Of a DNA stretch of 64,000 nt, positions 8,549 through 64,000 are shown piece after piece. Origin of the DNA: Alphaproteobacteria bacterium (lineage in GTDB: Bacteria; Pseudomonadota; Alphaproteobacteria; Bin95). The stretch spans positions 1,999,893 through 2,063,892 of the forward strand of contig OZ244951.1 of NCBI GenBank assembly GCA_965222315.1, written 5' to 3'. Within the stretch, counting starts at the first letter, position 1, and every line of letters begins with the position of its first letter. A program made the position numbers and the translations under genes. The notes under the pieces were generated by a model. It made no database searches and was not told the origin of the DNA. It worked only from the letters and a program-made list of their open reading frames with translations.

Positions 8549-9502
8549 ATGGCGATGGCGGCACAACGCGTTGTAGTGTTTGGTGGCTCCGGCTTTGTCG
8601 GACGGTATGTGGTCAAGCGTCTGGCGGCGGCGGGTTCGCCGGTGCGGGTGGCGTGCCGTGACACGGAAGCAGCCAAGTTTCTGAAGCCCATGGGCGCAGT
8701 CGGTCAGGTCAGCCTGATGCAGACGAACGTGCGCTATCCCGAAACCGTGGCCCGTGCCTGCGAAGGTGTGGACGCCGTGGTGAACCTTGTCGGCATCCTG
8801 TCGGAGTTCGGTGCGCAGCAATTCCGCGCCGTGCAGGCGGAGGGCGCGGACACGATCGCCAAGGCCGCCGCGGCGGCCGGCGTCAAGACCATGGTGCATC
8901 TCTCCGCCATCGGTGCGGATGCAGACAGCGATTCCCTTTATGCCCAGTCAAAGGCCGAGGGGGAGGCCGCAGTCCGCGCCGCGATGCCGGATGCCACGAT
9001 TATCCGGCCGAGCGTGGTCTTCGGGCCGGAAGACGACTTCTTCAACCGTTTCGCCGATCTGGCGCGGTTTGCGCCGGCTCTGCCGCTGATCGACGGCGGG
9101 CACAACAAAATGCAGCCGGTCTATGTTGGCGATGTGGCCGACGCTATATGCGAGGCGCTCTCCGATCCGGCGTGCGCTGGCCAGACCTATGAGATAGGCG
9201 GGCCGGATGTGATGACCATGAAGGAAATCATGAAATACACGCTGGAGCAAACGGGTCAGAAGCGGTTCCTCGCACCCTTGCCGTCTTTCATCGCAGCAAT
9301 TCAAGCGCGCTTCCTGGAATTGTTGCCGAATCCTCCGCTCACCCGCGACCAGCTCAAGCTTCTGGACCAGGACAATGTGGTGAGCGAAGGTGCGAAAGGG
9401 CTGGCCGATCTTGGTATTGACCCGACGCCGGTAGGGGCGGTCGTGCCCCGCTACCTCGGCCGTTTCAAGGGCGCACAGCCGCACGAAACCAGCATGGCCT
9501 AG
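8549..9502 (+). CDS. NAD(P)-binding epimerase/dehydratase-fold protein, complex I NDUFA9 (39 kDa)-like
   Basis: Rossmann motif VVFGGSGFVGRYVVKRL and an overall NmrA/NDUFA9-like layout of about 318 aa, common as a standalone gene in alphaproteobacteria. Confidence 0.6.
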   Translation: MAMAAQRVVVFGGSGFVGRYVVKRLAAAGSPVRVACRDTEAAKFLKPMGAVGQVSLMQTNVRYPETVARACEGVDAVVNLVGILSEFGAQQFRAVQAEGADTIAKAAAAAGVKTMVHLSAIGADADSDSLYAQSKAEGEAAVRAAMPDATIIRPSVVFGPEDDFFNRFADLARFAPALPLIDGGHNKMQPVYVGDVADAICEALSDPACAGQTYEIGGPDVMTMKEIMKYTLEQTGQKRFLAPLPSFIAAIQARFLELLPNPPLTRDQLKLLDQDNVVSEGAKGLADLGIDPTPVGAVVPRYLGRFKGAQPHETSMA

Positions 9503-16686: not shown

Positions 16687-17748
16687 CTACCCGGCCCGCT
16701 GCAAATCCTGAATTACCTCGCGCAGCGCGCCGGCGTCGGCCTCGTTCTCGACCGGCATGGCGAATTCGATGGACGTGATGCAATCATCGTAGCGCTCATG
16801 CAGTTTGGCGGCGATGGTGTCATAAGTCCCTACAGTGACGAAGTCGTGGTAGAGGTCATCCGGCACCCACGCCTGCATCTCGTCCCAGCGTTGCGCTTTC
16901 GATAGTTGGGCCATCTCCGCTGCGAGGTCGCCATAGCCGTGAAGTTCAAAGGGGCGGCGATAGCTGGGGGTGGATGCGTAGAAGGCGATGCGGGCGCGGG
17001 TCTCATCGATCTTGGCGGCCAGCGCGTCTTCGGTGCGGGCAGCGGCGACCAGGGGTTTCATAGCGACCTGAAAGTGGTCGAGACTGCGACCGGCCTTGGC
17101 CGCCCCGCGCTCGGCCGCCGGTTGCATCACTTCCTTGATGTAGCGCGGCGTGCATACGGGGTGCGGCCGCATTCCATCCGCACACTCGCCGGAAATCCGG
17201 CACATGACTTCGTTTACCACGGCGACGTGGATCGGCGGCGGCGGGTGGTCGATGGGGCCCGGATCGAACAGCGGCACCATCAGCGAGAGATTGTAGCGCT
17301 CGCTCTCATAGTTAAGCTTTTCGCCCGTCTGCCACGTGTGCCAGACAGCCCGGACCGCGCCGATATAGTCCCGCATCCAGGGGCCGGGCGGGTGATACTC
17401 CATGCCGAAGCGGCGCATGATGTGTCCGCGCACCTGGCTGCCGAGGCCGAGCGTGAACCGTCCCTTCGAGAGGCGCTGTAGCGACCAGGCGCTCATGGCA
17501 GTGATGGCGGGCGCCCGTGGAAAGGCCATGGCGACGGAAGTGGCGAGCTTCAGCGTTGACGTGCCAGCCGCGGCGATGGCCATCACCTGGTATGGGTCAT
17601 CCTTGGTTTCCTCCACCACCAGCGTGTCGTAGCCGAGGTCTTCGACCTGTTTGGCGTCTTCCAGCAGGGTCGAGAGGTCGATGGCCTTGTCCGGCGCACG
17701 GATGCCCGGATCGGTTTTACCGAGGGGGAGATAGGTTTCGACTTTCAT
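16687..17748 (-). CDS. LLM-class (luciferase-like) flavin/F420-dependent oxidoreductase
   Basis: 353 aa of the TIM-barrel luciferase-like monooxygenase family. Confidence 0.7.
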   Translation of the reverse strand: MKVETYLPLGKTDPGIRAPDKAIDLSTLLEDAKQVEDLGYDTLVVEETKDDPYQVMAIAAAGTSTLKLATSVAMAFPRAPAITAMSAWSLQRLSKGRFTLGLGSQVRGHIMRRFGMEYHPPGPWMRDYIGAVRAVWHTWQTGEKLNYESERYNLSLMVPLFDPGPIDHPPPPIHVAVVNEVMCRISGECADGMRPHPVCTPRYIKEVMQPAAERGAAKAGRSLDHFQVAMKPLVAAARTEDALAAKIDETRARIAFYASTPSYRRPFELHGYGDLAAEMAQLSKAQRWDEMQAWVPDDLYHDFVTVGTYDTIAAKLHERYDDCITSIEFAMPVENEADAGALREVIQDLQRAG

Positions 17749-19061
17749 GAGCGTTGTGGCGTTTCCGTATTGGTTAGCGGTGGCGCAAAGAGTTGCACGG
17801 GGTCGGAAATACCCCGCAAGCGAAAGGAACCCAGCGCCTCCATCGGATCGTCTAAGAGCGCGGCGACCGGTTCCGTCACCAACAGAGGCCGCCGCAATTC
17901 CTTGGTCATTGTCTCAACCCGGGCCGCCACGTTTACCGCGGGACCGATCACCGTGAAATCCAGGCGGTCAGGCGAGCCGATATTGCCGAAGAACACTTCG
18001 CCCGTGTGGAGCGCCAAGCCAATGCGCAGTGGCTGCCAGCCACCGATTCCGGCCAGCGGTTCCGGCGGTTCGGCAGAGAGACGGGCAATGCGGTCGCGAG
18101 CGTTGCGGGCCGCAGCAAATGCCTGCCGTGCCGTTTCGCGGCGGGCCGTTTCAGGGCCGTTGGTGAAAACCGCGAGCAGCCCGTCACCCATGAATTTCAG
18201 CACTTCTCCACCCTGTTCCTGGATGGCGGCTACCAGCGCTTCGAAATAGGCGTTCAGCAACGCCAGCATATTTTGAGGCGTTAAGCGGCTGGAAAGCTCT
18301 GTGAACCCGCGCATGTCAGACACCAGAACCACCGCGTCGAGAGGCGCGCCCGTGCCGCGGGTAATGGAGCCGTCCAGGACTTGTCGCGCTGCATTTCGGC
18401 CCAGGTAGGCTGTGGCAATATTCTCTGACACCAATAAGGCCATCAATCGCGCCACATGAATGGCGAGCAACCGGACCAGATTGTTGATGATCTCAAACGA
18501 AGGGCCGGAAAGACCGCCCGCCTCCACTGAGGCCATGGTAACCGTCATACTCTCCCGGCGCAGACCTTCGATCGATGTCAGTGGCATCACCAGATAATCT
18601 TTGAAGCCGCGCTCCGCCAATTCGCCCATGATCGGAAACCGCTCCGCCATGGCCGGGTCCCGTGGATCACCATGCAGGGTCTCTCCATGCTCGATGGCTA
18701 GATAGAGCGGGCTCTTAAGGTAAGAGGGATGCTCCAAGGTATCCGGATGAATGCGAATTTCGTCGCAAAGGCCGTCGTCCGCTTCCCAAATCCAGGAGTG
18801 CCCCAGGAGTTGCGGATGCAAGGTACCGGCGGAGAACGCCAATCGGGTCACCGGCAGCCCTGCGGCGACCAGCCGCCAGCAAAACGCTTCGGCCAGATCC
18901 AGCATGTTTCGGCAGAGCAGGGCCTCGCCCAGCAGCCAGGTTTCGACATCCGCTGGTGTGGCCGTGGTCCCGGCAACCGGAGGACCGTTGGCCGCCCGGG
19001 CATTCAGTTCGATATTCGCAGCGTACTGCCGTGGGGCTGGATCGAAACGGTGTGGGTGCAT
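17745..19061 (-). CDS. Class III adenylate/guanylate cyclase with an N-terminal domain of unknown function
   Basis: The C-terminal CYC domain is visible (VVLVSDMRGFTELSS...LKFMGDGLLAVF...IGLHTGEVFFGNIGS...VIGPAVNVAARVE). The N-terminal ~200 aa is unassigned. Its start overlaps the preceding gene's stop by 4 nt. Confidence 0.7.
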   Translation of the reverse strand: MHPHRFDPAPRQYAANIELNARAANGPPVAGTTATPADVETWLLGEALLCRNMLDLAEAFCWRLVAAGLPVTRLAFSAGTLHPQLLGHSWIWEADDGLCDEIRIHPDTLEHPSYLKSPLYLAIEHGETLHGDPRDPAMAERFPIMGELAERGFKDYLVMPLTSIEGLRRESMTVTMASVEAGGLSGPSFEIINNLVRLLAIHVARLMALLVSENIATAYLGRNAARQVLDGSITRGTGAPLDAVVLVSDMRGFTELSSRLTPQNMLALLNAYFEALVAAIQEQGGEVLKFMGDGLLAVFTNGPETARRETARQAFAAARNARDRIARLSAEPPEPLAGIGGWQPLRIGLALHTGEVFFGNIGSPDRLDFTVIGPAVNVAARVETMTKELRRPLLVTEPVAALLDDPMEALGSFRLRGISDPVQLFAPPLTNTETPQRS

Positions 19062-31138: not shown

Positions 31139-33412
31139 CTACTTTGTCTTCGCCTCGTAGACGCCGTCCCAGCCGTCGCCTGGCGGGTCTGCGCGCAGTT
31201 CATTGATGCGCAGGGCATATTCTTCGTAAAGCCCAGTCAGGCCGCCTGGATTGGGCGCTATGTCTTCGGGCGGGCCTTCTTGAGCATATGCTAAGGCGCT
31301 ATCCCAGTCCTGGGCACGGTAGGCGCTGAGCATTGCATCGACATGCGCCTTCGTTCGCGCGAATTGCGGCGTGGCGGCCATCGCGGCATCACCCAGCACG
31401 GTGAATACCCGCACGGCTTGTGTCTTGCCCTTCACTTGCAGCAGATCCAGTTCCAGGTAGGCGAAACCGGGGGCAAGGTTGGCCGTATCCTCCGACACAA
31501 CCAGGTCCGTGCCATACATCTTACTTTGCCCCTCCAGGCGGGAGGCGGTGTTGACCGTGTCGCCCAGGCAGGAATAGTCGAAGCGCAAGTCGCTGCCCAT
31601 ATTGCCGACAACGCAATCGCCCGTGTTAAGGCCCATGCCGATACGTACGGGCGGCAGGGCGCGGCCTTCTTCCGCCGCTTCCGCCTGCCATTCCGGCACC
31701 AGTTCCGCGAGTCTTGCGCGGATGGTTAACGCTGCGCCCACCGCTTGGGTGGCGTGATCGGGCTCGTCCACCGGGGCGTTCCAGAAGGCCATGATCGCAT
31801 CACCCATGTATTTGTCGATGGTGCCGCCGCTCTCCATGATGATGTCGGTCATTGGGGTGAGGAACTTGTTGATAAACTGGGTGAGCTGAATTGGCGTCAT
31901 GCTTTCAGAGATCGGCGTAAACCCTCTTATGTCGCAGAAAAAAAGTGTTAACGGACGGAGTTCTCCGCCCAATTGCGGTTCCTGGCCGGACTCCGCCATG
32001 CGCGAGACCAGCGCCGGGGAAAGGTAGCGCCCGAAGGTAGAACGCACCCGTTGCCGCTCCCTTTCGCTAAGGAGGTATTGAGTGGAGGTAACGACCAGAT
32101 AAACTATCAACGCGCCAACGGCCGGGTAGAGCGGGTCCACCAACAACCGGGCTTCCGAGTAGGCCAGCCATGAGCCAATGCCGCCACCTGCGGCGGCAAC
32201 CAGCCCGATCAGCGCGCAAGGTACCGGTCCCAGCCACGGCAGCAGGAAGACGAACACAAGGCCCATCATACCAAGCCCTAAGAACTCGGCTGCATCTGCC
32301 CAGCCTGGCCGGATCAAGTAATGGCCCAAGATCATCTGCTCAAGTGCCTGAGCATGAACGTAAATTCCCGGTACGCCACTGGTGAGTGATGTGGCGCGGA
32401 GATCCCGCAAACCCGGCGCTGTCGCGCCGATTAGCATGATTTGGCCCTCGACCAGCTCGATGAGCGCTTCCGGTTCTTGCAGCACGCGCCAAGCGGGAAT
32501 CGTGCGTTCGGGGATATCCTCTGAGTAGTGAATCCAGAATTGCGTGTCCTGCGCCATTGGTATTTCGAGTGCGCCGACTCGAAGGAGGTTCAAGCCATAG
32601 AATGCGCCTAGCCGGAACTCGCCCTGTGCATGAGCGGACCGCGCCACCAACGTGCTGGCGCCCTGGGCGACGCGCAGTGCCTCGACGGAGATCGTCGGGA
32701 TAATCGCATCGTCGATTTTCGAGAGCAGGGGCATGCGCCGGACAATCCCATCGCGCTCCGGCAGGTACGAGAAGTTGGCAAAGCCGGTGGCGGCCTCTTC
32801 CAGAACGGCTAGGTTACGGGTGGCGTGATCGAACTTTGGAATTGAATCGATCACGTCCTGATGGCCGGCAAATCCGACGCGCTTGGGCAAAGGTTCGGTG
32901 TTGCCTGCCTCACCGTGAAAGATCATGCCTAAAACACTTGGCGAGTTCGCGATGGCTTCGGCAAGGCGGTCGTCGTGGTCGCGAAGGCTCCGGAGGTGCG
33001 GCGCGATTTGTTCGCGAACTTCCTCCGGCAGTTTCCAGTCGCGGATGACTGTTGCCGGCGATGTGCGGTCTGGCTCAGCAAAAACAATATCAAACCCGAT
33101 CGCAGCAGAGCCGAGCGCGTTGAGATTGTCCACCAGATCAGCCATGATATGCCGCGGCCAGGGCCATTGGCCGAAGCGCCGCAGCGATTCCTCGTCCACG
33201 GCGATGACACGCACCGGGGCGGCCTCGTAGGTGCGGGGCGCGAGTTGTTGATAGCGGTCAAATACAAGGAAACGCGCAATTTTCAGGCCACCAGGATCCG
33301 CCCAACGGAGGGCCAAGGCCGCAAATAGTGCCAGTAACCCAGCAAGTATCACAATACCGCGGCGGCTAAAAATTCGTCGAGTGTGCTTTTTTTCACTCTC
33401 ATTTTTTGCCAT
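31139..33412 (-). CDS. CHASE2 sensor-domain adenylate/guanylate cyclase
   Basis: N-terminal TM segment, periplasmic CHASE2 region and three TM helices, then a class III cyclase domain (FFCDIRGFTPISE...KYMGDAIMAFWNAP...IGMGLNTGDCVVGNMGS...GDTVNTASRLE). Confidence 0.75.
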   Translation of the reverse strand: MAKNESEKKHTRRIFSRRGIVILAGLLALFAALALRWADPGGLKIARFLVFDRYQQLAPRTYEAAPVRVIAVDEESLRRFGQWPWPRHIMADLVDNLNALGSAAIGFDIVFAEPDRTSPATVIRDWKLPEEVREQIAPHLRSLRDHDDRLAEAIANSPSVLGMIFHGEAGNTEPLPKRVGFAGHQDVIDSIPKFDHATRNLAVLEEAATGFANFSYLPERDGIVRRMPLLSKIDDAIIPTISVEALRVAQGASTLVARSAHAQGEFRLGAFYGLNLLRVGALEIPMAQDTQFWIHYSEDIPERTIPAWRVLQEPEALIELVEGQIMLIGATAPGLRDLRATSLTSGVPGIYVHAQALEQMILGHYLIRPGWADAAEFLGLGMMGLVFVFLLPWLGPVPCALIGLVAAAGGGIGSWLAYSEARLLVDPLYPAVGALIVYLVVTSTQYLLSERERQRVRSTFGRYLSPALVSRMAESGQEPQLGGELRPLTLFFCDIRGFTPISESMTPIQLTQFINKFLTPMTDIIMESGGTIDKYMGDAIMAFWNAPVDEPDHATQAVGAALTIRARLAELVPEWQAEAAEEGRALPPVRIGMGLNTGDCVVGNMGSDLRFDYSCLGDTVNTASRLEGQSKMYGTDLVVSEDTANLAPGFAYLELDLLQVKGKTQAVRVFTVLGDAAMAATPQFARTKAHVDAMLSAYRAQDWDSALAYAQEGPPEDIAPNPGGLTGLYEEYALRINELRADPPGDGWDGVYEAKTK

Positions 33413-33519: not shown

Positions 33520-35037
33520 GTGAGCCAAGCAAGGCAGACCATTAATCGCAAATACTCGCAACCTGCGCCTGCGCGGGTGGCGATGCTTGTTTGCGTCCTG
33601 GCGGTTGCATTGTTCTCGTTTCTCATGGCGGGCGCTCCGGTACAAGCAGCCCCGGTTATTGGCTCGGCGTCAACAGTTGTACGTGACGTGAAAGGGCAAT
33701 TGGAGCGCAATTGGCGCGAGGTCGTCATTCACGACGACGTTCATCAGGACGAATTGATTAAGACGGGATCCGCTAGTGCAGCCCGACTAGTGTTTGCCGA
33801 CCGCACCGACTTTATGATCGGCGCAGAGTCCGAGGTTGTGCTGGACAAGTTCATTTATGATGCGACTTCAAACTCCGGGCAGTTGGTTCTGCGGGCAACC
33901 AAGGGTCTGATGAAGTTCCGCACGGGCAGTATGTCCAGCCGTTCATACCGTATCGACACGCCGGTCGCGACCGTCGGCGTACGCGGCACCGAGTTTGTAC
34001 TCCAGGTCTTCGAGGGCGGCGGCTCGTACATCAAAGTGATATCGGGCGAAGTGGTCGTGACGGATCACCGGAACAAATCGCTTTCTGTAAAAGCCGGTGA
34101 AACGGCAATTGTGTTCCCAGAATCCGATGCCCGCGCCGCGGCCGGTCCACGCTTGATCGCCGCAGGGGACTTTGCCCTGAGCGACCAGACTCGCGAAATG
34201 ATCGCACAGATCGTCTTTTCGGAAAGTACGACACAGACTCAACTGACAACCCAGGGGCAGCAAGCGGCTTCCTTTTCCGGCAATACGATCCAACTCAGTG
34301 CGATTGCCAATGGTGGCAACTCTCCAATTGCGGTCAATCCTGTAAAGCCTGCGCCACAGATTAAAACGGGATCCTCCGGCTCCTCCTTGCAGTCGCTTGT
34401 CCCTTCGCGGCAAGTTTTCGTGCCCCGCGGCTTACCCGGTTCATTCTTCAATAGCGGTTTCGACTCGGGGTTGAGCGGCTGGACATTTAGAGGCTCGGGG
34501 TCGGTGACTGTCATTCCTGATCCAGCTGATTCATTGAACAATGTGGCCCAACTGACAACCGGATCGCCAGTTTCGCTGGAGCAGACTTTTGAGCCGCTTG
34601 ATGAACCGTTCTCCATCAAGTTTTGGCGGCGGTTCTTGAGCGACAAGGGCGTGTTGTGCGTTTACGTCGAACCGGTAGAAGGTGATGCGGGTGAAAGCGC
34701 CAGCGCGAAGAATGATCCCGAACCCGCTTGTGATTCGGGCGCCCTGGCGGCTTTCGCATCGGTCGGTGCCGAACTTGCGATGCAGGAAGTAAGCATCGAT
34801 GTTCTGGATGAAGCGCTGTACGGTCTCGATCAATTGTTGCTGCGGCTGGTTTTCACCGCGGAAGAGGGTGGAGTTCAGGTGTTGCTGGACGACCTGACGA
34901 CGGTGCCCTATGTCGAGGGAGAGCCAGGTTCGACCGAGGTTCCGCTGGCACCGTCTATCGTATTTGTGGCCGGTACCTTCATCGTTGCTGGTCTGGCTGC
35001 TCGGTGGAGGCGGCGTCGGTCACAGGCCCTCTGGTAG
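33520..35037 (+). CDS. FecR-domain exported protein with a C-terminal VPLPA-CTERM-like sorting tail
   Basis: N-terminal signal/TM segment and a FecR-like beta domain (...ATVGVRGTEFVLQV...GEVVVTD...). The C-terminus is ...EVPLAPSIVFVAGTFIVAGLAARWRRRRSQALW (motif + TM + Arg-rich). Divergent from the CHASE2 cyclase. Confidence 0.55.
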   Translation: MSQARQTINRKYSQPAPARVAMLVCVLAVALFSFLMAGAPVQAAPVIGSASTVVRDVKGQLERNWREVVIHDDVHQDELIKTGSASAARLVFADRTDFMIGAESEVVLDKFIYDATSNSGQLVLRATKGLMKFRTGSMSSRSYRIDTPVATVGVRGTEFVLQVFEGGGSYIKVISGEVVVTDHRNKSLSVKAGETAIVFPESDARAAAGPRLIAAGDFALSDQTREMIAQIVFSESTTQTQLTTQGQQAASFSGNTIQLSAIANGGNSPIAVNPVKPAPQIKTGSSGSSLQSLVPSRQVFVPRGLPGSFFNSGFDSGLSGWTFRGSGSVTVIPDPADSLNNVAQLTTGSPVSLEQTFEPLDEPFSIKFWRRFLSDKGVLCVYVEPVEGDAGESASAKNDPEPACDSGALAAFASVGAELAMQEVSIDVLDEALYGLDQLLLRLVFTAEEGGVQVLLDDLTTVPYVEGEPGSTEVPLAPSIVFVAGTFIVAGLAARWRRRRSQALW

Positions 35038-41624: not shown

Positions 41625-41954
41625 GGGAGGGATCCCGGAGATGAAGAGAACCGATGGCGGGATGTAGGCGAGCAGGCCTGCAAATGCAAAGAAGAATTCC
41701 GAACGTTCTTCAACGATGAATAGGAGGGCAAATGATGTTTGCTCCTATTAGTTATAAGCTACCCAGCAAAATATGGGTTCTGATGAAGGTCGCGACGATG
41801 GAATGCGTTTCGCATTTCACCCGAATGTCGTTGTCGCTGGCTTCACATCCGCACGGCACACTGAAGTGAATTATGACATCGTCCACAAGGACCAGAGCCC
41901 ACACGGTTGACGTCAGCGCTGAGGGCTTTATTTTGAGTTAAAGCCATCGACCTC

Positions 41955-42170
41955 TGCGGGAGAGCTCGTCCCTTGGCAGTAGCCATCGGATGACGCCGAA
42001 GGAGCAACCGGCCCCGGAAACTCTCAGGCACCGTGGACCGCAGGGTGAGGCACCTCTGGAAAGAGAGCGCGCTTTTCGAAGCGCTCTCCGCCGAAGAAGT
42101 AAGCGATGGACAGGCGGCAGAGATTGCCGAACCGTTTGCGTGAATCTTTCAGGCATAGGAGACAGAGCGG
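41955..42170 (+). ncRNA. Tandem glycine riboswitch (two aptamers) in the gcvT leader
   Basis: Aptamer 1: GGGAGAG...CGCCGAAGGAGCAA...CTCTCAGGCA...GGACCG. Aptamer 2: CTCTGGAAAGAGAGCGC...CTCTCCGCCGAAGAAGTAAGCG...CTTTCAGGCATAGGAGACAGAG. Both match the conserved glycine riboswitch cores and sit directly upstream of gcvT. Confidence 0.75.
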
Positions 42171-46787: not shown

Positions 46788-47282
46788 TTGGAAGCCGATA
46801 CTGAGAATGAGTTGAGCGCGTCGGAGCTGCGTGATTTCCGGCGGCTGACGGCAATCATGATTCCGGCGTCTGACGAGTTCGGTCTGCCGGGAGCTGGCGA
46901 CGAAGCGATCTTCGCCGATATTGTCGGCTCCCTCGGCCGCGATCTTCCTGCCGTTCGGCAAGCTCTTGGCGAGTTGGCCCGGATGTCAGGCGGTCACTTT
47001 TCGGAACTGACGGATTCAGCGGCGGAAATGACCGCCATGGCTCTGCTAAATCGGCCAGGACCGGTGACCGCCGCACTGGGACAGGCGGTGCTGCAGTGCT
47101 ACTACAGGGATAGTCGCGTGTTTCTGGCTTTGGGCCGGGAGTACCGGCCGCCATTTCCGAAAGGCCACGTGCTGGAGCAGGGCGATTTCGGCCTGTTGGA
47201 GGCGGTGCAGGGGCGGCCGCGCATGTGGCGCGATCTTGACAGTGGCAAATCAGGACTCGGCGGGGCGAGCGATGAACACTGA
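46788..47282 (+). CDS. Gluconate 2-dehydrogenase subunit 3-like small subunit
   Basis: 164-aa protein directly upstream of and overlapping a GMC flavoprotein gene. The start codon appears to be TTG. The family assignment is tentative. Confidence 0.45.
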   Translation: MEADTENELSASELRDFRRLTAIMIPASDEFGLPGAGDEAIFADIVGSLGRDLPAVRQALGELARMSGGHFSELTDSAAEMTAMALLNRPGPVTAALGQAVLQCYYRDSRVFLALGREYRPPFPKGHVLEQGDFGLLEAVQGRPRMWRDLDSGKSGLGGASDEH

Positions 47283-48903
47283 TAATGCCAGCGCATCCCG
47301 GCCAACGGACGAAATCGTCGATGTGCTGATTATTGGCTCTGGCGCGTCCGGTGCTGCAGTGGCGTGGAGCCTTGCCGATACACGGATGCGGATCCTTTGC
47401 CTGGAGCAGGGCGACTGGGTAAAGCCGACTGACTTTCCGACCAACGGGCTGGATTGGGAGGTCCGGCGCTTCAGCGATGCCGCCATCCTGCCGAATAGGA
47501 GGGGATTACCGGCGGACTACCCGGTGAACGACGACAATTCGCTCATGAAGGTTGCCAATTATAACGCCGTCGGCGGCGCAACCGTGCATTACACCGCGCA
47601 TTTCCCGCGGATGCACCCGTCGGATTTCAAGGTGAAGACGCTGGATGGCGTCGCCGACGATTGGCCGCTCGACTATTGGACGCTGGAGCCCTACTTCGCC
47701 GAGAATGACCGGATAACGGGCGTGGCGGGACTGGCAGGCGATCCGTCATACCCGCCTCATGAGCCGACCATGCCGCCGGTGCCACTTGGCAAGACCGGCA
47801 CGCGTTTCGCCCAGGCCACCAACAAGCTGGGCTGGCACTGGTGGCCATCAGACATTGCGATCAACACAGTTGAATATGACGGACGTGCGCCCTGTATCAA
47901 CCTTGGCAACTGCACGCCCGGTTGTGCACAGGGCGCCAAGTCGAGCGTCGATATCACCTACTGGCCGGCTGCGATCAGGGCAGGGGTGGAGTTGCGCACG
48001 AATTGCCGGGTGCGCGAGATCCTTACCAACGAGTACGGGATGGCGTCGGGCGTGGTCTACTACGACCCAGACGGCGTCGAGCGCTTCCAGCCGGCGGAAG
48101 TGGTGATCCTGGCGGCCAATGGTGTCGGAACGCCCAGGCTATTGTTGAATTCCGCGTCGGGTCGGTTCCCGGACGGACTCGCGAATTCTTCCGGGCTGGT
48201 CGGCAAGAACCTAATGCTGCATCCCTGGCCGCAAGTAACCGGCTACGTGGACGAGGAGATGGACGGCGACCGGGGACCGCAAACGGTCATGTGGGGCAAG
48301 GAATTTTATGAGACCGATCGCACCCGTGGCTTCGTGCGCGGCTACACCCTGCAATATGCGCGCGGGACCGGGCCGGTGAACGAGGCGGTGACGAGCATGC
48401 TGGCGGGCCGGCTGCCATGGGGAAGGGACCATCATCGCGTCTACCGTACCCTTTACCAGAGGCGTCTGCAGATCGGTATCGCCTGCGAAGACCTGCCGGA
48501 GGAGCACAATCGGGTGACGCTCGATCCCGTGTTGAAAGACAGCCACGGCATTCCGGCGCCGAAGGTAGACTACACCATCAGCGCGAACACGGCGGCGATG
48601 ATGGAGCACGGCATCGCGCGCGCGACGGAGATCCTGGAGGCGGCGGGAGCGAACAATATTTCATGCTCCCGCACAGCGCTGAACTATCCGGGGCATTTGC
48701 TCGGCACCGCGCGGATGGGACTGGACCCGGAACGTTCAGTCGTGAACGAATGGGGGCGGTCCCATGACGTCAAGAACCTGTTCATCGTCGATGGCAGTAT
48801 CTGGGTTACGTCCGGCGGCGTTAACCCGACATCCACGATTCAGGCACTGGCGCTCTATATCGCGGACCAGATGAAGCAGCGGTTGGCAAACCTGTTCGAC
48901 TGA
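47272..48903 (+). CDS. GMC family oxidoreductase (gluconate 2-dehydrogenase flavoprotein-like)
   Basis: FAD motif VDVLIIGSGASGAAVAWSL near the N-terminus and a GMC C-terminal domain (HLLGTARMG). Start ambiguous between 47236 and 47272. Confidence 0.75.
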   Translation: MNTDNASASRPTDEIVDVLIIGSGASGAAVAWSLADTRMRILCLEQGDWVKPTDFPTNGLDWEVRRFSDAAILPNRRGLPADYPVNDDNSLMKVANYNAVGGATVHYTAHFPRMHPSDFKVKTLDGVADDWPLDYWTLEPYFAENDRITGVAGLAGDPSYPPHEPTMPPVPLGKTGTRFAQATNKLGWHWWPSDIAINTVEYDGRAPCINLGNCTPGCAQGAKSSVDITYWPAAIRAGVELRTNCRVREILTNEYGMASGVVYYDPDGVERFQPAEVVILAANGVGTPRLLLNSASGRFPDGLANSSGLVGKNLMLHPWPQVTGYVDEEMDGDRGPQTVMWGKEFYETDRTRGFVRGYTLQYARGTGPVNEAVTSMLAGRLPWGRDHHRVYRTLYQRRLQIGIACEDLPEEHNRVTLDPVLKDSHGIPAPKVDYTISANTAAMMEHGIARATEILEAAGANNISCSRTALNYPGHLLGTARMGLDPERSVVNEWGRSHDVKNLFIVDGSIWVTSGGVNPTSTIQALALYIADQMKQRLANLFD

Positions 48904-50264: not shown

Positions 50265-51214
50265 TCACGCAGCCTGTGCCAGGCTAAGGGCGTTTTCGCG
50301 CGGCATTTTGCGGATGTGGCTGGCTTCGAACGCGCCGGGTAGCGCCGCCGCTATGTCGCCCGCCTCCAGGAGCTTTTCCAGGTCGATGCCGGTCTCGATG
50401 CCCATGCGCTCCATCAGGTAGACGATATCTTCGCTCGGGATATTGCCGGACGCTCCCGGCGCATAGGGGCACCCGCCCAGACCCGCTACCGACACGTCGA
50501 AACTGCGGAGCCCCGCTTCCATCCCGGCCAGGATGTTGGCGACTCCGAAGCCGGACGTGTCGTGGCCATGGAAGATGAAACTCGCGTCGCCGCTGAACTG
50601 GGCCAGAGCCTGGCCTGCAAGTGATTTAACGCTCATGGGCAGGGCCATGCCCGTTGTATCTGACAGGGCGAATTCCAGGCCGGAGCGGATTTTCAGCATC
50701 TTTCGATATTGGCGAGCACCACTTTCTCCGGCGTCAGCCCTTCGAACGGGCAGTGGAAGGAAGTGGCGAGGCCGATGCGCAAGGTCAGCTTTTGCTCCGG
50801 GTCGACCTCGGTCAGCAGATAGGCAAGGTCGGTGATCGACTCCGCTGTGGGGCGGCCGACATTGCTGTTGTTATGCCCGTCAGTCATGGAGATCACCATT
50901 TCCATATCGGTGATGCCATGGCTGGCGGCCCGGCGCGCGCCCTTGGAATTCGGGACCAGCACCATGCCTGTGACGCCCGGCATCGGCCCGAGGCCCTGGA
51001 CCACCTCGTCCATGTCCCGCATCTGGGGGATGGCCTTGGGGCTGACGAACGAGCCGATCTCCATCCGCTTGAAGCCCGCCGCGGCGAGCGCATGGATCAG
51101 GCGGATTTTCGTCTCGGTCGGCACGAACTGCTTGATGTTCTGCAAACCGTCCCGCGGTCCCACCTCGACGAGTTCGATCCGGTCCATGATTGCGCCTCGC
51201 TTGTCAAAATGCAT
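50265..51214 (-). pseudogene. Hydroxymethylglutaryl-CoA lyase, disrupted by a frameshift near codon 165
   Basis: The N-terminal half (ORF 50693-51214: LVEVGPRDGLQN...EIGSFVSPKAIPQM...PEKVVLANIERC*) and C-terminal half (ORF 50265-50699: MLKIRSGLEFALSDTTG...HGHDTSGFGVANI...VAGLGGCPYAPGASGN...) are contiguous HMG-CoA lyase sequence in two frames. On the minus strand, GAAAGA|TGCTGA is where a 1-nt gap would restore ...IER-xL-KIRSG. Confidence 0.6.
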
Positions 51215-51262
51215 GTGCCATGGTGTTTAGCGGAAACCGTTCCCTTTCGCCAACAGGACGTC

Positions 51263-52447
51263 ATGACTGATCATCTGTCCGGCCAATCATCCGGCCAGCC
51301 GCTTGCCGGTTACCGCGTCGTTGACCTCACCCGCGTGCTCTCCGGCCCGTTTCTGACACAGATCCTGGGTGATCTCGGTGCCGACGTCATCAAGATCGAG
51401 GCCGATGTGGGCGACTCAGTGCGCACCCAAGGGGACCTAGTCGATGGTTTCAGTTGGTATTTTGCGGGCTTCAACCGCAACAAACGTTCCATGGTCCTCA
51501 ACCCCAAGACGCCGGAAGGCAAGGAAACGCTGGAAGCCTTGGTCCGCACGGCAGATGTGCTGGTTGAGAATTTCCGGCCGGGCGTGATGGAGCGGTTGGG
51601 ATTCGGCCCGGCGCGGCTGGAGGAATTGCGTCCCGGTCTGATTACTTGCGCGGTCACGGGCTTCGGCGCGGATGGGCCTTACCGCGACCGCCCCGCTTTC
51701 GATTTTATCGCCCAGGCCATGAGCGGTTTCATGAGTTCAAACGGCAGAGAGGGCGATCCGCCGATGCGGTCCGGCCTGCCGATCAGCGATCTGGTGACGG
51801 GAATATATGGCGCGCTTGGCGTGACGGCGGCGCTCCTGCGCCGGGAGCGGAACCCGGGCGCAGGCGAGCATGTGGATGTTGCCCTGACCAACTCCATGAT
51901 CAGCCTGCTCGCTTATCTGGCGGGGAATTACTTTGCCAGTGGCCGGGTCACGCCGCGCTCCGGCAACGACCACCCCATTGCTGCCCCCTATGGCCTGTTC
52001 GAGACGGCTGACGTTCCCATCGCCGTTGCGCCGAACGACGATGTGTTCTTCGGCCGCCTGATGGATGCGCTCGACCTTTCGGAACTGAAAGACGATCCGG
52101 ATTTCGCCAGCAATCACCTGCGCGTCGCCAACCGCGAGCGGCTGAACAAGGCGGTGACCGGAAGGCTCGCCACCGCAGGCGCCGAGTATTGGATCGAGAA
52201 GATCAACGCTGGCGGCGTGCCATGCAGCCGGGTCAACGATGTAGCCGGTGTCTTTGCCGACCCGCAGGTGCAGTCCCAGCAAATGGAGTTGGACATCGAG
52301 CACCCGGCGCATGGAAACATGAAAGTGTTGGGCTTCCCCATGAAATTCCGCGAGGCCCCCTGTGTGATCCATACCCACCCGCCGGATTTGGGGGAGCACA
52401 CCGACGAGATTCTCACGGAGTTGGGACTAAAAAAAGGGCAGGGGTGA
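51263..52447 (+). CDS. CoA-transferase family III (CaiB/BaiF) protein
   Basis: 394 aa: LAGYRVVDLTRVLSGPFLTQILGDLGADVIKIE...NKRS and the catalytic Asp region (PISDLVTG). The ORF-track extension to 50654 is antisense overlap with the lyase gene. Confidence 0.8.
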   Translation: MTDHLSGQSSGQPLAGYRVVDLTRVLSGPFLTQILGDLGADVIKIEADVGDSVRTQGDLVDGFSWYFAGFNRNKRSMVLNPKTPEGKETLEALVRTADVLVENFRPGVMERLGFGPARLEELRPGLITCAVTGFGADGPYRDRPAFDFIAQAMSGFMSSNGREGDPPMRSGLPISDLVTGIYGALGVTAALLRRERNPGAGEHVDVALTNSMISLLAYLAGNYFASGRVTPRSGNDHPIAAPYGLFETADVPIAVAPNDDVFFGRLMDALDLSELKDDPDFASNHLRVANRERLNKAVTGRLATAGAEYWIEKINAGGVPCSRVNDVAGVFADPQVQSQQMELDIEHPAHGNMKVLGFPMKFREAPCVIHTHPPDLGEHTDEILTELGLKKGQG

Positions 52448-52466
52448 GAGGTTGGTAAACCATTAT

Positions 52467-52515
52467 CCGGCGTCATTGCTTCGCCTGGAAAAATCCGGGC
52501 GAAGCAATGACGCCG
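52467..52515. terminator. Long perfect hairpin (18-bp stem) between convergent CoA-transferase and SMP-30 genes: bidirectional terminator or REP-like element
   Basis: CCGGCGTCATTGCTTCGCC-TGGAAAAATCCG-GGCGAAGCAATGACGCCG read directly; a second small hairpin GGAGCGCGGCTCC follows. Confidence 0.5.
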
Positions 52516-52543
52516 TTAGGGTTGGGGAAGGAGCGCGGCTCCT

Positions 52544-53503
52544 TTAAAACTCCCAATGCACCAGCGGCGCGCCTTTGATCGGGGAGCGGAAGGTTTGGAT
52601 GCCGTCATGGGCGAGCGAGCCCATGTAAACCGTGTGCAGGTCCCGTCCGCCAAAGCCGATGCTCGCGATGTTGGCGAGCCGCCGCTTGCCGCCGATCTCG
52701 ATTATCTCCCGCACCGGTTCGCCGCGGTCGAAGGCGGCCTGCAACTCGGTTATTGCTGCCGGGTCGGCGTCCTCATAGACGATATTCTGCTTGCCGTTCC
52801 GGTCCACATGGATGATGCGGTTGCTTCCAACGCTGACCATCCAGATCCCGCCGTTGGCATCGAAGGTGAAGCCGTCCGGGAAGGTGCCTCCCGGATAATC
52901 CGCCACGGTTTCCTTCGGCCCGAGTGTGGCGTCGGCGTAGATCGCATAGCGGGAGGTGCATTGCCCCACGGTCTCGTTCACATAGATCCATTCACCGGTG
53001 GGGTCGACGATGGCCTCGTTGGTGAAGGCGATGCTATCGGCAACGACGCGGGTCGCGCCCCGGTCATGCACGGCGATGAAGCCATCAGCATGGCCCTTCT
53101 TGAAGGCCGGGTGACGCGGTAGTGCGCGGGTCGAGACCGAAATCCAGATGCGGCCCCTGGCGTCCAGCCCGACAAAGTTCACGGGCGGCAGAACCTCGCC
53201 ATCTGCCTCCGCTAAAAAAGGACTGGCCTGGCCGTCCGGTTTGATCCGCCACACGCCGCTGCTATCGGCCAGGTTTGCTGCCAGAACGTCCCGGCCCGGC
53301 AGCAGGGCGATTCCGTTCGGCATGAAATCCGCCGGCGCGCCGATGGCCTGTACAAAGCGGCTCTGACCGTCGGGCTTGACGATGTTGTAGCCACCCCGCC
53401 TGTCGGAGCAGAACAGGTCGCCTGACTTGGTAGCCAGAACGCATTCCGGTCGTTGCATGCCGCTGCCGATAGCGGTGATGTCGTCGGGAGATAGGGTGAA
53501 CAT
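52544..53503 (-). CDS. SMP-30/gluconolactonase/LRE family protein
   Basis: Six-bladed propeller SGL-family sequence in about 320 aa from MFTLSPDD. The N-terminal extension in the ORF track is rejected. Confidence 0.6.
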   Translation of the reverse strand: MFTLSPDDITAIGSGMQRPECVLATKSGDLFCSDRRGGYNIVKPDGQSRFVQAIGAPADFMPNGIALLPGRDVLAANLADSSGVWRIKPDGQASPFLAEADGEVLPPVNFVGLDARGRIWISVSTRALPRHPAFKKGHADGFIAVHDRGATRVVADSIAFTNEAIVDPTGEWIYVNETVGQCTSRYAIYADATLGPKETVADYPGGTFPDGFTFDANGGIWMVSVGSNRIIHVDRNGKQNIVYEDADPAAITELQAAFDRGEPVREIIEIGGKRRLANIASIGFGGRDLHTVYMGSLAHDGIQTFRSPIKGAPLVHWEF

Positions 53504-59246: not shown

Positions 59247-59597
59247 TTATGACCTAGGGCACGTTATCAAAGACGGCCGCCCTGCGCGCCTATTAAGCGG
59301 GGCAACCAGTGTCTGTCCATTCGCTACGCCGAGCGCCGCTAAGAGCTCGACTCGAAAATCGATCAGGAATGTCGATATCTTGCGAGGCGTAGGGCGTAGA
59401 CGTATGTGAGCGACGTTGACCCAAGCCTCGGCAGAAGCGATGGAATTCTTCGCCAGTCTGCGGCATCGGCCGAGCCAGGCGAAGGTGCGTTCCACAATCC
59501 AGCGATCCGGCCAGCGCGCGCCCTTCGCTCCGCCAATTACTCGTTCTTTTTCGGCCTCCATCAGCCGTTCAGCCGCAAAAGCCAGCATGTCGCGCAC
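59247..59597 (-). mobile_element. IS5/IS4-superfamily (DDE_Tnp_1) transposase C-terminal fragment (IS remnant)
   Basis: The ORF contains RWIVERTFAWLGRCRRLAKNSIASAEAWVNVAHIRL, the conserved C-terminal block of IS5-family transposases. Only about 40-60 aa are recognisable, with no catalytic N-terminal part. Confidence 0.55.
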
Positions 59598-59913
59598 TGA
59601 ATCAGCGTCCGCGCTGTTTTCTACAAGTTAAATCAGAGCCATCCTCTCGTCGGCCATTGGCATCTCCGGATCGGTTTCGAGCTTTGCGACAAGAACCTCT
59701 GCCGAAGATAGGCAATGATTGCCCACGCCGGCCTCCCTCTGTTACAGCGCTATGGGAGGCGTGCATGTGGACGGCGTTGCTGCCGCCTGCTGTTTACACC
59801 CCGCTATGGGACACGGCTGGAGGCACCTGCAGTGTGTTGTTGACTATCTCTGTCCAAGCCCTGAACCTGTTCGTGAAATGCACTTTCGCGCTTCAGGCAA
59901 GGAGGCCTACTTC

Positions 59914-60834
59914 ATGAACTCGGAATGGACGGTCTGGCTGAACGGTGAAATGGTTCCCGAAACCCAGGCGCGGGTGCCGTTTCGGGACCGCGGCTTCAAA
60001 TACGGCGACGCTGCTTTTGATACGACCCGCACCTTCGGCCACAAGATTTTCAAGCTGGAAGAGCACCTGGACCGCTTCTGGCGCTCCCTGAACTACCTCC
60101 AGATCGATCCCGGCATCAGCAAGGCCGCGCTGATCGAAGCGACGGAGCAGGTGGCGGAAGCGAACTTGAAAATGGTCGGCCAGGACGAGGACATCTGGCT
60201 GACCCAGCGCGTGACACGCGGCCTCGACCCCAGCGACCGCGAGCGTTGGCCCGGATACCCGGAGCGTACGGTGATCGTGGAGGCGTCTCCCCTGCCGCTC
60301 CGCCAGCGTTCGGAACTCTACCGCAAGGGCCTGAAGGTCATCACGCCCGCGACCCGGCGCACGCCGCCGGACTCGCTCAGCCCGCGCGCCAAGACACACA
60401 ACTACCTGAACCTGATCATGGGCGATTTGGAGGTGCAGGCGCAGGACCCGGATGCCATGGCGATCCTGCTGGACACTAACGGCAGCTTCTCGGAGGGCAA
60501 GGGTTCCAACATCTTCTTCGTGAAGGATGGCGCAATCCAGACACCGAAGGAACGCTACGTCCTGCCGGGCGTCAGCCGCGAGACAACGTTCGACCTCGCC
60601 CGCGCTGCCGGCCTGCGGGTGGAGGAAACCGATCTCGACATGTTTGACGCGCTCGGCAGCGCGGAGTCATTCATCACCTCGACCAGCTTTTGCATTTGCC
60701 CGGTGTCTAGCATCAACGGCGTCACCATTGGCGACGGCCAGGTGCCTGGACCGGTCACGAAGCAGCTGATCGACGCCTATGTCGATTTCGTTGGCTTCGA
60801 CTGGCACGAGCAATACTTGCGCGCCGGAAACTGA
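59914..60834 (+). CDS. Class IV aminotransferase (branched-chain amino acid / D-amino acid aminotransferase family)
   Basis: 306 aa from MNSEWTVWLNGEMVPETQARVPFRDRGFKYGDAAFDTTRTFGHKIF (fold-type IV N-terminus). GGAGG RBS 9 nt upstream. Confidence 0.75.
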   Translation: MNSEWTVWLNGEMVPETQARVPFRDRGFKYGDAAFDTTRTFGHKIFKLEEHLDRFWRSLNYLQIDPGISKAALIEATEQVAEANLKMVGQDEDIWLTQRVTRGLDPSDRERWPGYPERTVIVEASPLPLRQRSELYRKGLKVITPATRRTPPDSLSPRAKTHNYLNLIMGDLEVQAQDPDAMAILLDTNGSFSEGKGSNIFFVKDGAIQTPKERYVLPGVSRETTFDLARAAGLRVEETDLDMFDALGSAESFITSTSFCICPVSSINGVTIGDGQVPGPVTKQLIDAYVDFVGFDWHEQYLRAGN

Positions 60835-60875
60835 CCATCGTCTTAAACCCCCTCCGAACAGCGGGCAAGCCTTCC

Positions 60876-63800
60876 ATGTCCTCAGAATCCGGCGGCCTGG
60901 CCGCTCTCGCCGCGCCTTGGCGGATCGGCGTCGATGTCGGCGGCACCTTTACCGACCTGGTGCTGACGGATAGCGCCGCCCGGAGCCTGGTGGTCAAGGT
61001 GCCCTCCGTCCCCTCTGACCCCAGCCAAGGTGTGCTGGCGGCGCTGGAGCGGCTCGCGGGCAATCTCGGTTGCATGGTGACGGACGTGCTGGCGGACTGC
61101 GCCCTGTTCGTTCATGGCTCAACGGTGGCGACCAACACCATGCTGGAAGGCAAGGGTGCCACTGTTGGACTGCTGACGACGGCGGGCTTCCGCGACGCGC
61201 TTGAAATCCGCCGCGGCCTGCGGGAGGACCAGTGGAACCATCGGGAGCCGTTCGCGCCGGTGCTGGTCCCCCGGTACCTGCGCCTGGGCGTCGGCGGGCG
61301 GACCGATAGCGACGGCAGCGAGCACGAGCCCCTGCGTCTCGGCGATGTGGACGAGGCTCTTACGGCGTTCCGCAGCGAAGGTGTGGAGGCGGTTGCCGTC
61401 GCCTTCTTCAACAGCTTCCTGAACGGCGCGCACGAGAAAGCCGCAGCCTCCCGCTTGCGCCAGCAGTGGCCGGAGGCTTGGGTGACGGAATCCGCCGCTC
61501 TCTCCCCGACACTGGGAGAGTACGAGCGCACTTCCACTGCGGTAGTGAACGCCTGCCTCTCGCCACGCATCGTCTCCTATCTACGCTCGTTGGACGAGCA
61601 ATTGCGCAGTTTGGGCCTGAAGCCGCCGCTGTTGCTGGTGCAGTCGAACGGCGGTGCGATCTCGGTGGAGCAGGTAGCGCCCCGCCCGGTCAACCTGCTG
61701 CTGAGCGGCCCGGCGGCGGCGGTCGGTGCGCTGAACTACTACCGTGGTCTGCTGGAGCAGGGCGAGACGGGCGGCAATGATCCCGGCAACCTCATATCCA
61801 TGGAAATCGGCGGCACGTCCTGTGATGTACTGCTAATGTCGGCGGGCCAGGTGGCGATGAAGGACGATCTGATGATCGCCGGCTATCACGTCTCCACCCC
61901 GGCGATCGACATCCACACCATCGGCGCGGGCGGCGGCACGATTGCGGGCGTGGATGGGGCGGGCATGCTTTATGTGGGTCCTCAGGGTGCGGGCGCGGAC
62001 CCCGGTCCCGCGTGCTACGGCAAGGGCGGCGAAAACCCGACTGTCACCGACGCGCAACTGGTGCTGGGCAGGCTCCGCGCCGGGGCCTATGCCGAGGCTG
62101 GGCTGACGCTGGACCTGGAGGCGGCGCGGCGAGCTATACAGACAAAGGTCGCCGACCTGCTCAGGCTTTCGGTGGAGGATGCCGCGGTCGGCATCATTGC
62201 GCTCCTGGAACAGAACCTGCTGCACGCGGTTGAGTACATCTCCATCGAACGCGGGCACGCGCCCAGGCTGTTTACGCTGGTTGCGGCGGGCGGCGCCGGG
62301 CCGATGCACGGGGTGAGCGTCGCGCGCGGACTCGGCTGCGAACGGGTCTACGTGCCGCGCGATGCGGGTGCGCTCTGCGCTGTCGGGATGCTGCATGCGG
62401 ACGTGCGCCAGGATTTCCAGCGGTTCCTGCGTGGTGCCTTGGATGATCTGGACCCAAAGGTGGTTGAAACCGACCTGGCAGGACTGGACGCACAGGCGCT
62501 GGAAGCCATGCAGGCCGAGGGCTTCGGCGGGGACCAGGTGGCGTTGGAGCACGCCATTGACCTGCACTACACCGGCCAGCTTTCCTCCCTGCGCGTGATC
62601 CTGCCTGCGGGCGGCTTCGATACGAAGGCCGTGCGGGAGGTGTTCGAGACGGAATACCAGCGCCTCTATGGCCATGTGCAACCGGACGGCACGATCATGA
62701 GCGCCTCCCTCCGCGTCGCCGCCCGTGCCGCCACCGGCACGCCCAAGGCCAAGGCGGGCCATGCTCCCGCTGCCTCCTCCGCTGAGCCGCAAGAACGCCG
62801 GCAAGTCTGGCATGAGGGGCGTGGCATGCTGGAGACTGCGGTCTATGGCGGCACGGCGCTCGGCCTCGGCGCGACTGTCGAAGGGCCTGCCGTGATCGAG
62901 GAACGTACGACCACCGTCCTGCTCGGTCCTGGCGACCGCCTCGCCGTCGATGGCGCAGGCAATTTCATGATCCAGGTGGCGGAGGCTGCCGAGGCCGCAG
63001 AACACGCCCGGCAAGCTGCCCCGGAAGAAAAGCTCGACCCGGTCATCCTGGCGCTATTGCAGAACCGGCTCGACCAGATCAGCAAGCATATGGGCTGGGT
63101 CATGACCCGCACGGCCCGCAGCCCAATCTTCAGCCAGAGCCACGACTTCTCCTGCTACGTCACCACGCCGGATGGCACGCTGGTCGCCAATGCTGACGGC
63201 ATCCCTATTCACACCGGCGGCGGCGGCTTTGCCGTACGGGCGTTGCTGCGTGACTTCGAGGGACGGATCAATCCGGAGGACGTGTTCATCCTCTCCGACC
63301 CCTATGTCGCGGGCGGTAACCATTTGCCGGACTGGGTGATCGCGCGGCCGATCTTCGTCGGCGAACCCGCGCGGCTCGCGGGCTTCTGCTGCAACCGCGC
63401 CCACCAGTCCGACATCGGCGGTGGCCTCGCCGGCACCTACAACCCGGAGGCGACCGAGATCTGGCATGAGGGCATTCGCCTGCCGGTGATGAAGTTGGTG
63501 GACCGTGGCGAGTTGCGGGACGACCTCTGGAAGTTGCTGCTCATCAACTCCCGCACGTCGGAGCTTCTGGACGGAGACCTCCGCGCCATGTTGGGCTCGA
63601 CCCGTGTCGGCAGCGAGCGGGTGGCGGCGTTGGCGGGCGAGCTTGGCCTGGAATCCTACTTCGCCCATCTGGCCGGCGTGCTCGACCATGCCGACGCCCG
63701 CATGCGGGAGGCCGTGCGGGCGCTACCGGACGGCACCTATCTGGGAGAGGACAGCACCGACAACGATTGCTTCGACAAGATCGAGACCGCAATCCGCGTC

Positions 63801-64000
63801 GCGCTAACGGTTGAGGGCGACCGGCTGACGCTGGATTTCTCGAAAAGCGACCCGCAGATGCGAGGCTTCAAGAACTCCTCGCTCGCCAACACCTACTCGG
63901 CGGCGTTCCTGGCGCTTTCCTCCTTCTTCGACACCGACATTCCACGGAACGAGGGCACCTACCGCTGCGTTGAGATTATCGCGCCTAAAGGCTCCATCGT
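60876..64000 (+). CDS. Hydantoinase/oxoprolinase family protein, fused A (HyuA-like) and B (HyuB-like) domains; 3-prime end beyond window
   Basis: ATG at 60876 gives MSSESGGLAALAAPWRIGVDVGGTFTDLVL (HyuA phosphate-1 motif), later HGSTVATNTMLEGKGA and GFRDALEIRRG. The same frame continues through ...GAGNFMIQVAEAAE...KLDPVILALLQNRLDQISKHMGWVMTRTARSPIFSQSHDFSCYV (HyuB N-terminus) with no stop before the window end. Confidence 0.7.
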   Translation, partial: MSSESGGLAALAAPWRIGVDVGGTFTDLVLTDSAARSLVVKVPSVPSDPSQGVLAALERLAGNLGCMVTDVLADCALFVHGSTVATNTMLEGKGATVGLLTTAGFRDALEIRRGLREDQWNHREPFAPVLVPRYLRLGVGGRTDSDGSEHEPLRLGDVDEALTAFRSEGVEAVAVAFFNSFLNGAHEKAAASRLRQQWPEAWVTESAALSPTLGEYERTSTAVVNACLSPRIVSYLRSLDEQLRSLGLKPPLLLVQSNGGAISVEQVAPRPVNLLLSGPAAAVGALNYYRGLLEQGETGGNDPGNLISMEIGGTSCDVLLMSAGQVAMKDDLMIAGYHVSTPAIDIHTIGAGGGTIAGVDGAGMLYVGPQGAGADPGPACYGKGGENPTVTDAQLVLGRLRAGAYAEAGLTLDLEAARRAIQTKVADLLRLSVEDAAVGIIALLEQNLLHAVEYISIERGHAPRLFTLVAAGGAGPMHGVSVARGLGCERVYVPRDAGALCAVGMLHADVRQDFQRFLRGALDDLDPKVVETDLAGLDAQALEAMQAEGFGGDQVALEHAIDLHYTGQLSSLRVILPAGGFDTKAVREVFETEYQRLYGHVQPDGTIMSASLRVAARAATGTPKAKAGHAPAASSAEPQERRQVWHEGRGMLETAVYGGTALGLGATVEGPAVIEERTTTVLLGPGDRLAVDGAGNFMIQVAEAAEAAEHARQAAPEEKLDPVILALLQNRLDQISKHMGWVMTRTARSPIFSQSHDFSCYVTTPDGTLVANADGIPIHTGGGGFAVRALLRDFEGRINPEDVFILSDPYVAGGNHLPDWVIARPIFVGEPARLAGFCCNRAHQSDIGGGLAGTYNPEATEIWHEGIRLPVMKLVDRGELRDDLWKLLLINSRTSELLDGDLRAMLGSTRVGSERVAALAGELGLESYFAHLAGVLDHADARMREAVRALPDGTYLGEDSTDNDCFDKIETAIRVALTVEGDRLTLDFSKSDPQMRGFKNSSLANTYSAAFLALSSFFDTDIPRNEGTYRCVEIIAPKGSI

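Follow-up and report, generated by a model that had tools for sequence, protein, structure and literature searches.

A one-base frameshift in an HMGL-like lyase gene beside a family III CoA-transferase gene: recent strain-specific loss or consensus error

Two overlapping reading frames on the minus strand of an alphaproteobacterial contig together spell out most of an HMG-CoA-lyase-like protein, yet neither contains a whole enzyme. The locus raises three questions: whether the two frames are pieces of one gene, whether the organism itself carries the break, and whether the loss of this enzyme would touch leucine catabolism, as had been proposed from the surrounding genes. We addressed them within the 64-kb stretch of DNA that was analysed (here called the window) and by comparison with related proteins and contigs.

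One lyase gene in two reading frames

The reading frames and their junction are arranged as follows.

50693 to 51187, minus strand: N-terminal fragment (fragment 1) of the HMGL-like lyase, 164 codons and a premature TGA at 50695-50693
50265 to 50699, minus strand: C-terminal fragment (fragment 2) of the HMGL-like lyase, 144 codons in the −1 frame, beginning at the native Met164 codon
50693 to 50699, minus strand: 7-nt overlap ATGCTGA, where fragment 2 begins and fragment 1 terminates
50701 to 50703, minus strand: A3 run with one A missing, ancestrally GAA AAG (Glu162-Lys163) and now GAAAG

Fragment 1 matches positions 1-123 of the 260 positions of the HMGL-like family PF00682 (E=2.3e-11) and fragment 2 matches positions 158-258 (E=1.2e-20), while the 307-aa protein obtained by adding one base matches positions 1-258 (E=8.5e-37, 127 bits against a cut-off of 29 bits). 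All three matches are far above chance. The repaired protein also scores 277 bits against the NCBIfam model NF004283, "hydroxymethylglutaryl-CoA lyase" (cut-off 246), and is by both models a full-length member of the HMGL-like / HMG-CoA lyase family; a single uninterrupted frame for the whole barrel is absent, since a deletion of 1 nt breaks the gene at 50693-50703. Seven catalytic and metal-binding residues, R12, D13, E43, H207, H209, C240 and N249, align to R41, D42, E72, H233, H235, C266 and N275 of the human enzyme (2CW6) and are invariant among 19 family members. Arg12, Asp13 and Glu43 lie on fragment 1, and His207, His209, Cys240 and Asn249 on fragment 2. With the active site divided in this way over two products, each fragment by itself would be inactive, to judge from the residue positions. 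Within the window no second copy of the lyase was found.

Taken from its first ATG, the upstream frame covers 50693 to 51214 on the minus strand (173 aa). In an alignment of 18 homologues, however, the N-terminus is MDRIELVEV, which places the start of the window lyase at 51187; the in-frame ATG at 51214 lies upstream of it, and the homologues do not use that start.

The downstream frame stays open well upstream of the junction, and homologues were therefore needed to place the lesion. A search covering 5.8 billion proteins returned matches that were mostly full-length (303-320 aa), the closest being 307 aa long with 82-91% identity; most of the 18 that were aligned carry the motif NIEKML at the junction. 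A syntenic Logan contig from the same species, L008 (22.8 kb), encodes P0129, a full-length protein that clusters with the best match at 90% identity. In the alignment of L008 to window positions 59426 to 40226 (19,202 columns), identity is 96.77%, and there are 620 mismatches and just one gap. That sole gap is the junction, where L008 reads ATCGAAAAGATG and the window ATCGAAA-GATG, that is, GAAAAG versus GAAAG. The DNA of five other relatives reads GAGAAA, GAAAAG or GAGAAC at this site. Thus the ancestral ATC GAA AAG ATG (I-E-K-M) has become ATC GAA AG. ATG, with an A lost from a four-A run in codon Lys163 of 307.

The broken form was found in a single assembly. Fragment 1 is identical to P0128 (164 aa) and fragment 2 to P0133 (144 aa), both from one NCBI/ENA contig of 5,157,465 bp, evidently the source genome; they are the only short members of the cluster that contains the best match (90% identity), and every other, full-length member is intact. 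A protein-guided scan of JGI metagenome contigs returned only intact relatives at 79-89% identity and one distant match at 42%, and the junction pattern with either A3 or A4 had 0 matches there. Across the protein cluster and the JGI contigs, no assembly other than the source holds the split allele, and the window reading frame is disrupted relative to its intact orthologues.

These results bear out the claim of the earlier note that the two minus-strand frames are halves of one HMG-CoA-lyase-family gene. Its one-base frameshift stands as well, in a gene of 307 rather than about 305 codons; its placing of the missing base after GAAAGA was right in essence but off by a base or two, the loss lying inside the A-run, and its gene start at 51214 gives way to 51187.

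L008 differs from the window in other respects. At L008 positions 9161-9202 (window ~50265) the lyase stop codon has been lost, apparently by a TGA-to-TGG change, and the protein there is extended by 13 aa at its C-terminus to 320 aa, ending ...AAWATGLTATFTARL; the window lyase, unlike that of L008, retains the family-typical stop. Between 40226 and 59426 the two sequences diverge by 3.2% at the nucleotide level (620 mismatches) with one indel in 19.2 kb including intergenic DNA, an unusually clean collinearity. The divergence is uneven and peaks at ~76 mismatches per kb over the SMP-30/gluconolactonase-like (SGL) gene (dN 0.042).

Genomic setting and the leucine question

The genes nearest the lyase, and those of branched-chain amino acid (BCAA) catabolism farther off, are these.

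51188 to 51262, no strand: intergenic region between lyase and CoA-transferase, 75 nt by coordinates
51263 to 52447, plus strand: intact family III (CaiB/BaiF-type) CoA-transferase, 394 aa, matching PF02515 at positions 1-366 of 366 (E=1e-125)
52544 to 53503, minus strand: SGL protein (PF08450), 319 aa by comparison with the L008 gene
54174 to 59126, minus strand: BCKDH E1a, E1b, E2 and E3 (Pfam)
59719 to 60834: class IV aminotransferase, BCAT (Pfam)

The earlier note had described a cluster rich in leucine/BCAA catabolism genes, made up of BCKDH, BCAT, an acyl-CoA dehydrogenase and a CoA-transferase. BCKDH and BCAT genes are indeed nearby, with the SGL-family gene and the CoA-transferase standing between them and the lyase, but the adjacency of BCKDH was found only in the window and the same-species L008. 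BCKDH genes are absent near the lyase in eight of nine other loci (L002, L003, L005-L007, L009-L011), the flank of L004 being too short, and among L002-L007 the five loci with enough flank, examined over as much as 10 kb, lack BCKDH, gcv, class V aminotransferase and GMC genes. The other flank of the lyase has a class V aminotransferase, a GMC oxidoreductase and the gcvTHP glycine-cleavage operon; only past these, at 9 kb from the lyase, comes the acyl-CoA dehydrogenase, a 591-aa enzyme of the FadE type. The CoA-transferase is a family III enzyme and the conserved neighbour of the lyase.

A lyase serving leucine degradation would be expected among liu genes. No equivalents of liuA, liuB, liuC or liuD (isovaleryl-CoA dehydrogenase, methylcrotonyl-CoA carboxylase, methylglutaconyl-CoA hydratase) were detected in the 64-kb window, and no liuABCD genes in the examined flanks of the relatives. 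The window lyase is ~40% identical to both 6NDS and human 2CW6 and scores 221 bits against 6NDS and 196 bits against Brucella 1YDN, as opposed to 612 bits for members of its own subfamily; it is no nearer to the alphaproteobacterial Brucella HMG-CoA lyase than to the human one. Thus neither of the features looked for in a liuE orthologue, association with liuABCD and close similarity to characterised HMG-CoA lyases, was found. These comparisons suggest that the protein is not the leucine-pathway liuE but a paralogous HMGL-family lyase of a distinct alphaproteobacterial subfamily. Given the pairing with a CoA-transferase, the lack of liu genes, the NF004283 score of 277 against a cut-off of 246 and the ~40% identity, we read it as a paralogue acting on the CoA ester of a free acid, and the idea that its loss would be meaningful for BCAA catabolism finds no support on the same grounds.

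What travels with the lyase in the relatives' loci examined is the family III CoA-transferase, its one conserved neighbour. In the window the two genes diverge, and the 75 nt between them would hold a putative shared promoter or regulatory region. The CoA-transferase adjoins the lyase in L002-L010, divergently wherever the strand was checked, and lies in the same cluster in L011/L012; within L002-L007 it stands beside the lyase in six of six loci, at 77-88% amino acid identity. The pair recurs in unrelated surroundings at 79% (L009) and 66% (L010) identity. L002-L004 and L008 also have an SGL gene next to the pair. The Acuticoccus lyase (62% identity) shares its cluster with an SGL protein, the CoA-transferase, a TRAP transporter and a LysR regulator. 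The full set of SMP-30/gluconolactonase-like protein, family III CoA-transferase and HMGL-like lyase (window 50265-53503) recurs in L002-L004, L008 and L011/L012.

Several other features of the window were recorded. A tandem glycine riboswitch at 41947-42167 (plus strand), with two RF00504 aptamers of 60 and 36 bits, lies directly 5' of gcvT (42106/42232-43356), which is followed by gcvH, gcvP1 and gcvP2 in a textbook arrangement. At 46788-47282 (plus strand) a 164-aa ORF with no Pfam match overlaps the start of the GMC oxidoreductase gene (47236-48903); it is kept in L008, evolves fast (dN/dS 0.62 versus 0.02-0.24 in its neighbours) and may encode a putative small subunit of the GMC-type dehydrogenase. 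A long ORF from ~60834 to 63998 (plus strand), running past the window end, fuses hydantoinase/oxoprolinase A and B domains (PF05378, PF01968, PF19278, PF02538), and the minus-strand ORFs at 61112-63689, devoid of Pfam matches, are its antisense shadows. Two class III adenylate/guanylate cyclase genes and a FecR-domain protein gene occupy 17745-19061 (minus), 31139-33412 (minus) and 33520-35037 (plus); one of the cyclase genes, with a CHASE2 sensor domain, adjoins the divergent FecR-domain protein gene.

Origin of the missing base

Deletion of one A from GAAAAG (window 50701-50703, codon Lys163) would end translation four codons further on, and the 144-aa fragment would be left untranslated or be translated separately. 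The lyase gene shows no clear decay beyond this site, so that the lesion is a real frameshift of very recent date or else one isolated consensus error, the same pair of causes, pseudogene or sequencing/assembly error, between which the earlier note had hesitated. We favour a very recent, strain-specific loss-of-function frameshift in a lyase that lies outside the leucine pathway, with a probability of roughly 0.5, and by the same even odds the missing base would be absent from the DNA itself as well as from the consensus. Under this reading the strain would lose a peripheral CoA-ester pathway. In the competing account the gene is whole in the organism (307 codons, with GAAAAG) and the consensus dropped one homopolymer A, creating a split with no biology behind it. 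This account is only slightly less probable; the two fit the data about equally, and their order is not robust.

Much of the evidence can be turned either way. The close relatives examined are all intact, most of them 307 aa long with NIEKML, which we count for a real deletion, while the occurrence of the split in only one assembly among all relatives found is also what a consensus error would produce. A one-base homopolymer deletion is a typical error of long-read consensus, and long-read assembly is plausible for a single 5,157,465-bp contig whose relatives in the lineage are known as MAGs. The lyase is undamaged apart from the missing base, with its start, stop and catalytic residues kept and a pairwise dN/dS of 0.081 between window and L008 (13 neighbouring genes, 0.02-0.62), and its partner CoA-transferase is under strong constraint (dN/dS 0.022); both observations favour an intact gene in the organism. 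When changes were polarised with four outgroups, the window lineage of the lyase had 6 nonsynonymous and 7 synonymous substitutions and the L008 lineage 4 and 12, a weak hint of relaxed selection on the window lyase that is not significant. Against a consensus error stands the quality of the surrounding sequence. The 19.2 kb common to the window and L008, an independent short-read contig, contain 163 homopolymer runs of at least 4 bases (132 of 4, 27 of 5, three of 6 and one of 7 bases). With the junction gap as the sole indel of the alignment, none of them differs in length between the two, which argues that the assembly is not generally indel-prone. Homopolymer-biased error should strike the 31 runs of 5-7 bases first, and these are unaffected. 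No further truncated or split gene was found among ~55 ORFs checked across the window, whose domains are essentially complete by Pfam coverage, the measure used here as a GC3-based frameshift screen of the whole window was too noisy.

A real deletion need not abolish the enzyme if its two products could cooperate. Ribosomes might stop at the TGA (50695-50693) and re-initiate at the ATG (50699-50697, native Met164), and the half-barrels might reassemble as an active lyase; other enzymes with (beta/alpha)8 barrels are known to show fragment complementation. Termination-reinitiation followed by complementation is conceivable here, as the ATG of native Met164 lies within the overlap that ends in the new TGA: this ATGCTGA stop/start geometry suits such coupling, fragment 2 begins at a native methionine, and the replacement of Lys163 by Arg-Cys is the only change. 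The gene is split in no relative, however, so the split is not an evolved arrangement, and no Shine-Dalgarno-like motif lies at a useful distance 5' of the ATG. We consider it very improbable that the locus would yield the predicted two-piece TIM-barrel lyase, a natural, freshly born split enzyme. Lower still, at a level near zero, is the chance of programmed recoding to a full-length protein by −1 ribosomal frameshifting or transcriptional slippage. In its favour are the −1 offset of the second frame from the first and the short A-run beside the site, but no X XXY YYZ slippery heptamer is present at the site, the relatives have a single ORF with no frameshift, and transcriptional slippage requires runs of ~8 or more, for which an A3 run is far too short. 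Phase variation, considered along with programmed frameshifting, was rejected with it because the frameshift is unconserved, the heptamer is missing and the A-run measures only 3-4 bases.

If the very recent strain-specific deletion that we favour is real, one strain is newly deprived of a peripheral CoA-ester lyase, and the gene is a routine pseudogene at strain level; if not, the locus records one consensus error, the rest of the assembly being clean. Whichever holds, the partner of this subfamily is a family III CoA-transferase, often joined by an SMP-30-type lactonase, and this corrects the logic of its annotation: in view of that pairing, neither the presence nor the loss of such an "HMG-CoA lyase" should count as evidence on leucine catabolism.

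A candidate pathway and comparison with known systems

The composition of the module suggests that the lyase cleaves the CoA ester of a hydroxy-acid that was activated from its free form, outside the canonical leucine pathway, the substrate class being deduced from the partner genes. A lactone, possibly, would be opened to a free 3-hydroxy-3-alkyl-dicarboxylate, which would receive CoA from the transferase, and the lyase would split the resulting ester into acetyl-CoA and a keto acid. As a separate matter from the fate of the window gene, the lactonase/family III CoA-transferase/HMGL-like lyase module may serve a catabolic route, not yet described, for a 3-hydroxy-3-alkyl-dicarboxylate derived from a lactone; a literature search found no description of a lactonase/CoA-transferase/HMG-CoA-lyase module or of bacterial hydroxymethylglutarate utilisation. 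The substrate of the module could merit a small biochemical study.

As a lesion, the deletion resembles ordinary bacterial frameshift pseudogenes, in which, as here, one base is lost from a short homopolymer in one strain and in an otherwise conserved gene; equally, no feature sets the present case apart from the homopolymer indel errors of long-read assemblies. As an enzyme, the lyase has its fold family and all catalytic residues in common with the canonical (S)-HMG-CoA lyase (LiuE/MvaB/HMGCL; PDB 2CW6, 1YDN, 1YDO, 2FTP), from which it differs by its ~40% identity, its position outside a liu operon, its family III CoA-transferase partner and its frameshift.

Two systems offer parallels for the proposed activation of a free acid. 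In mammals SUGCT (succinate-hydroxymethylglutarate CoA-transferase, EC 2.8.3.13) can form HMG-CoA from free HMG, which HMG-CoA lyase then cleaves; there the two genes are unlinked. By this analogy HMG, activated by SUGCT-like transfer, is the simplest guess at the substrate of the lyase/CoA-transferase pair. In Chloroflexus aurantiacus the gene of R-citramalyl-CoA lyase reportedly adjoins that of a class III succinyl-CoA:D-citramalate CoA-transferase. In that system a CoA-transfer reaction activates the free hydroxy-dicarboxylate, whose CoA ester is cleaved to acetyl-CoA and a keto acid. There too an HMGL-family lyase stands beside a family III CoA-transferase, a likeness of gene arrangement, to which the module described here often adds an SMP-30-type lactonase and a transporter.
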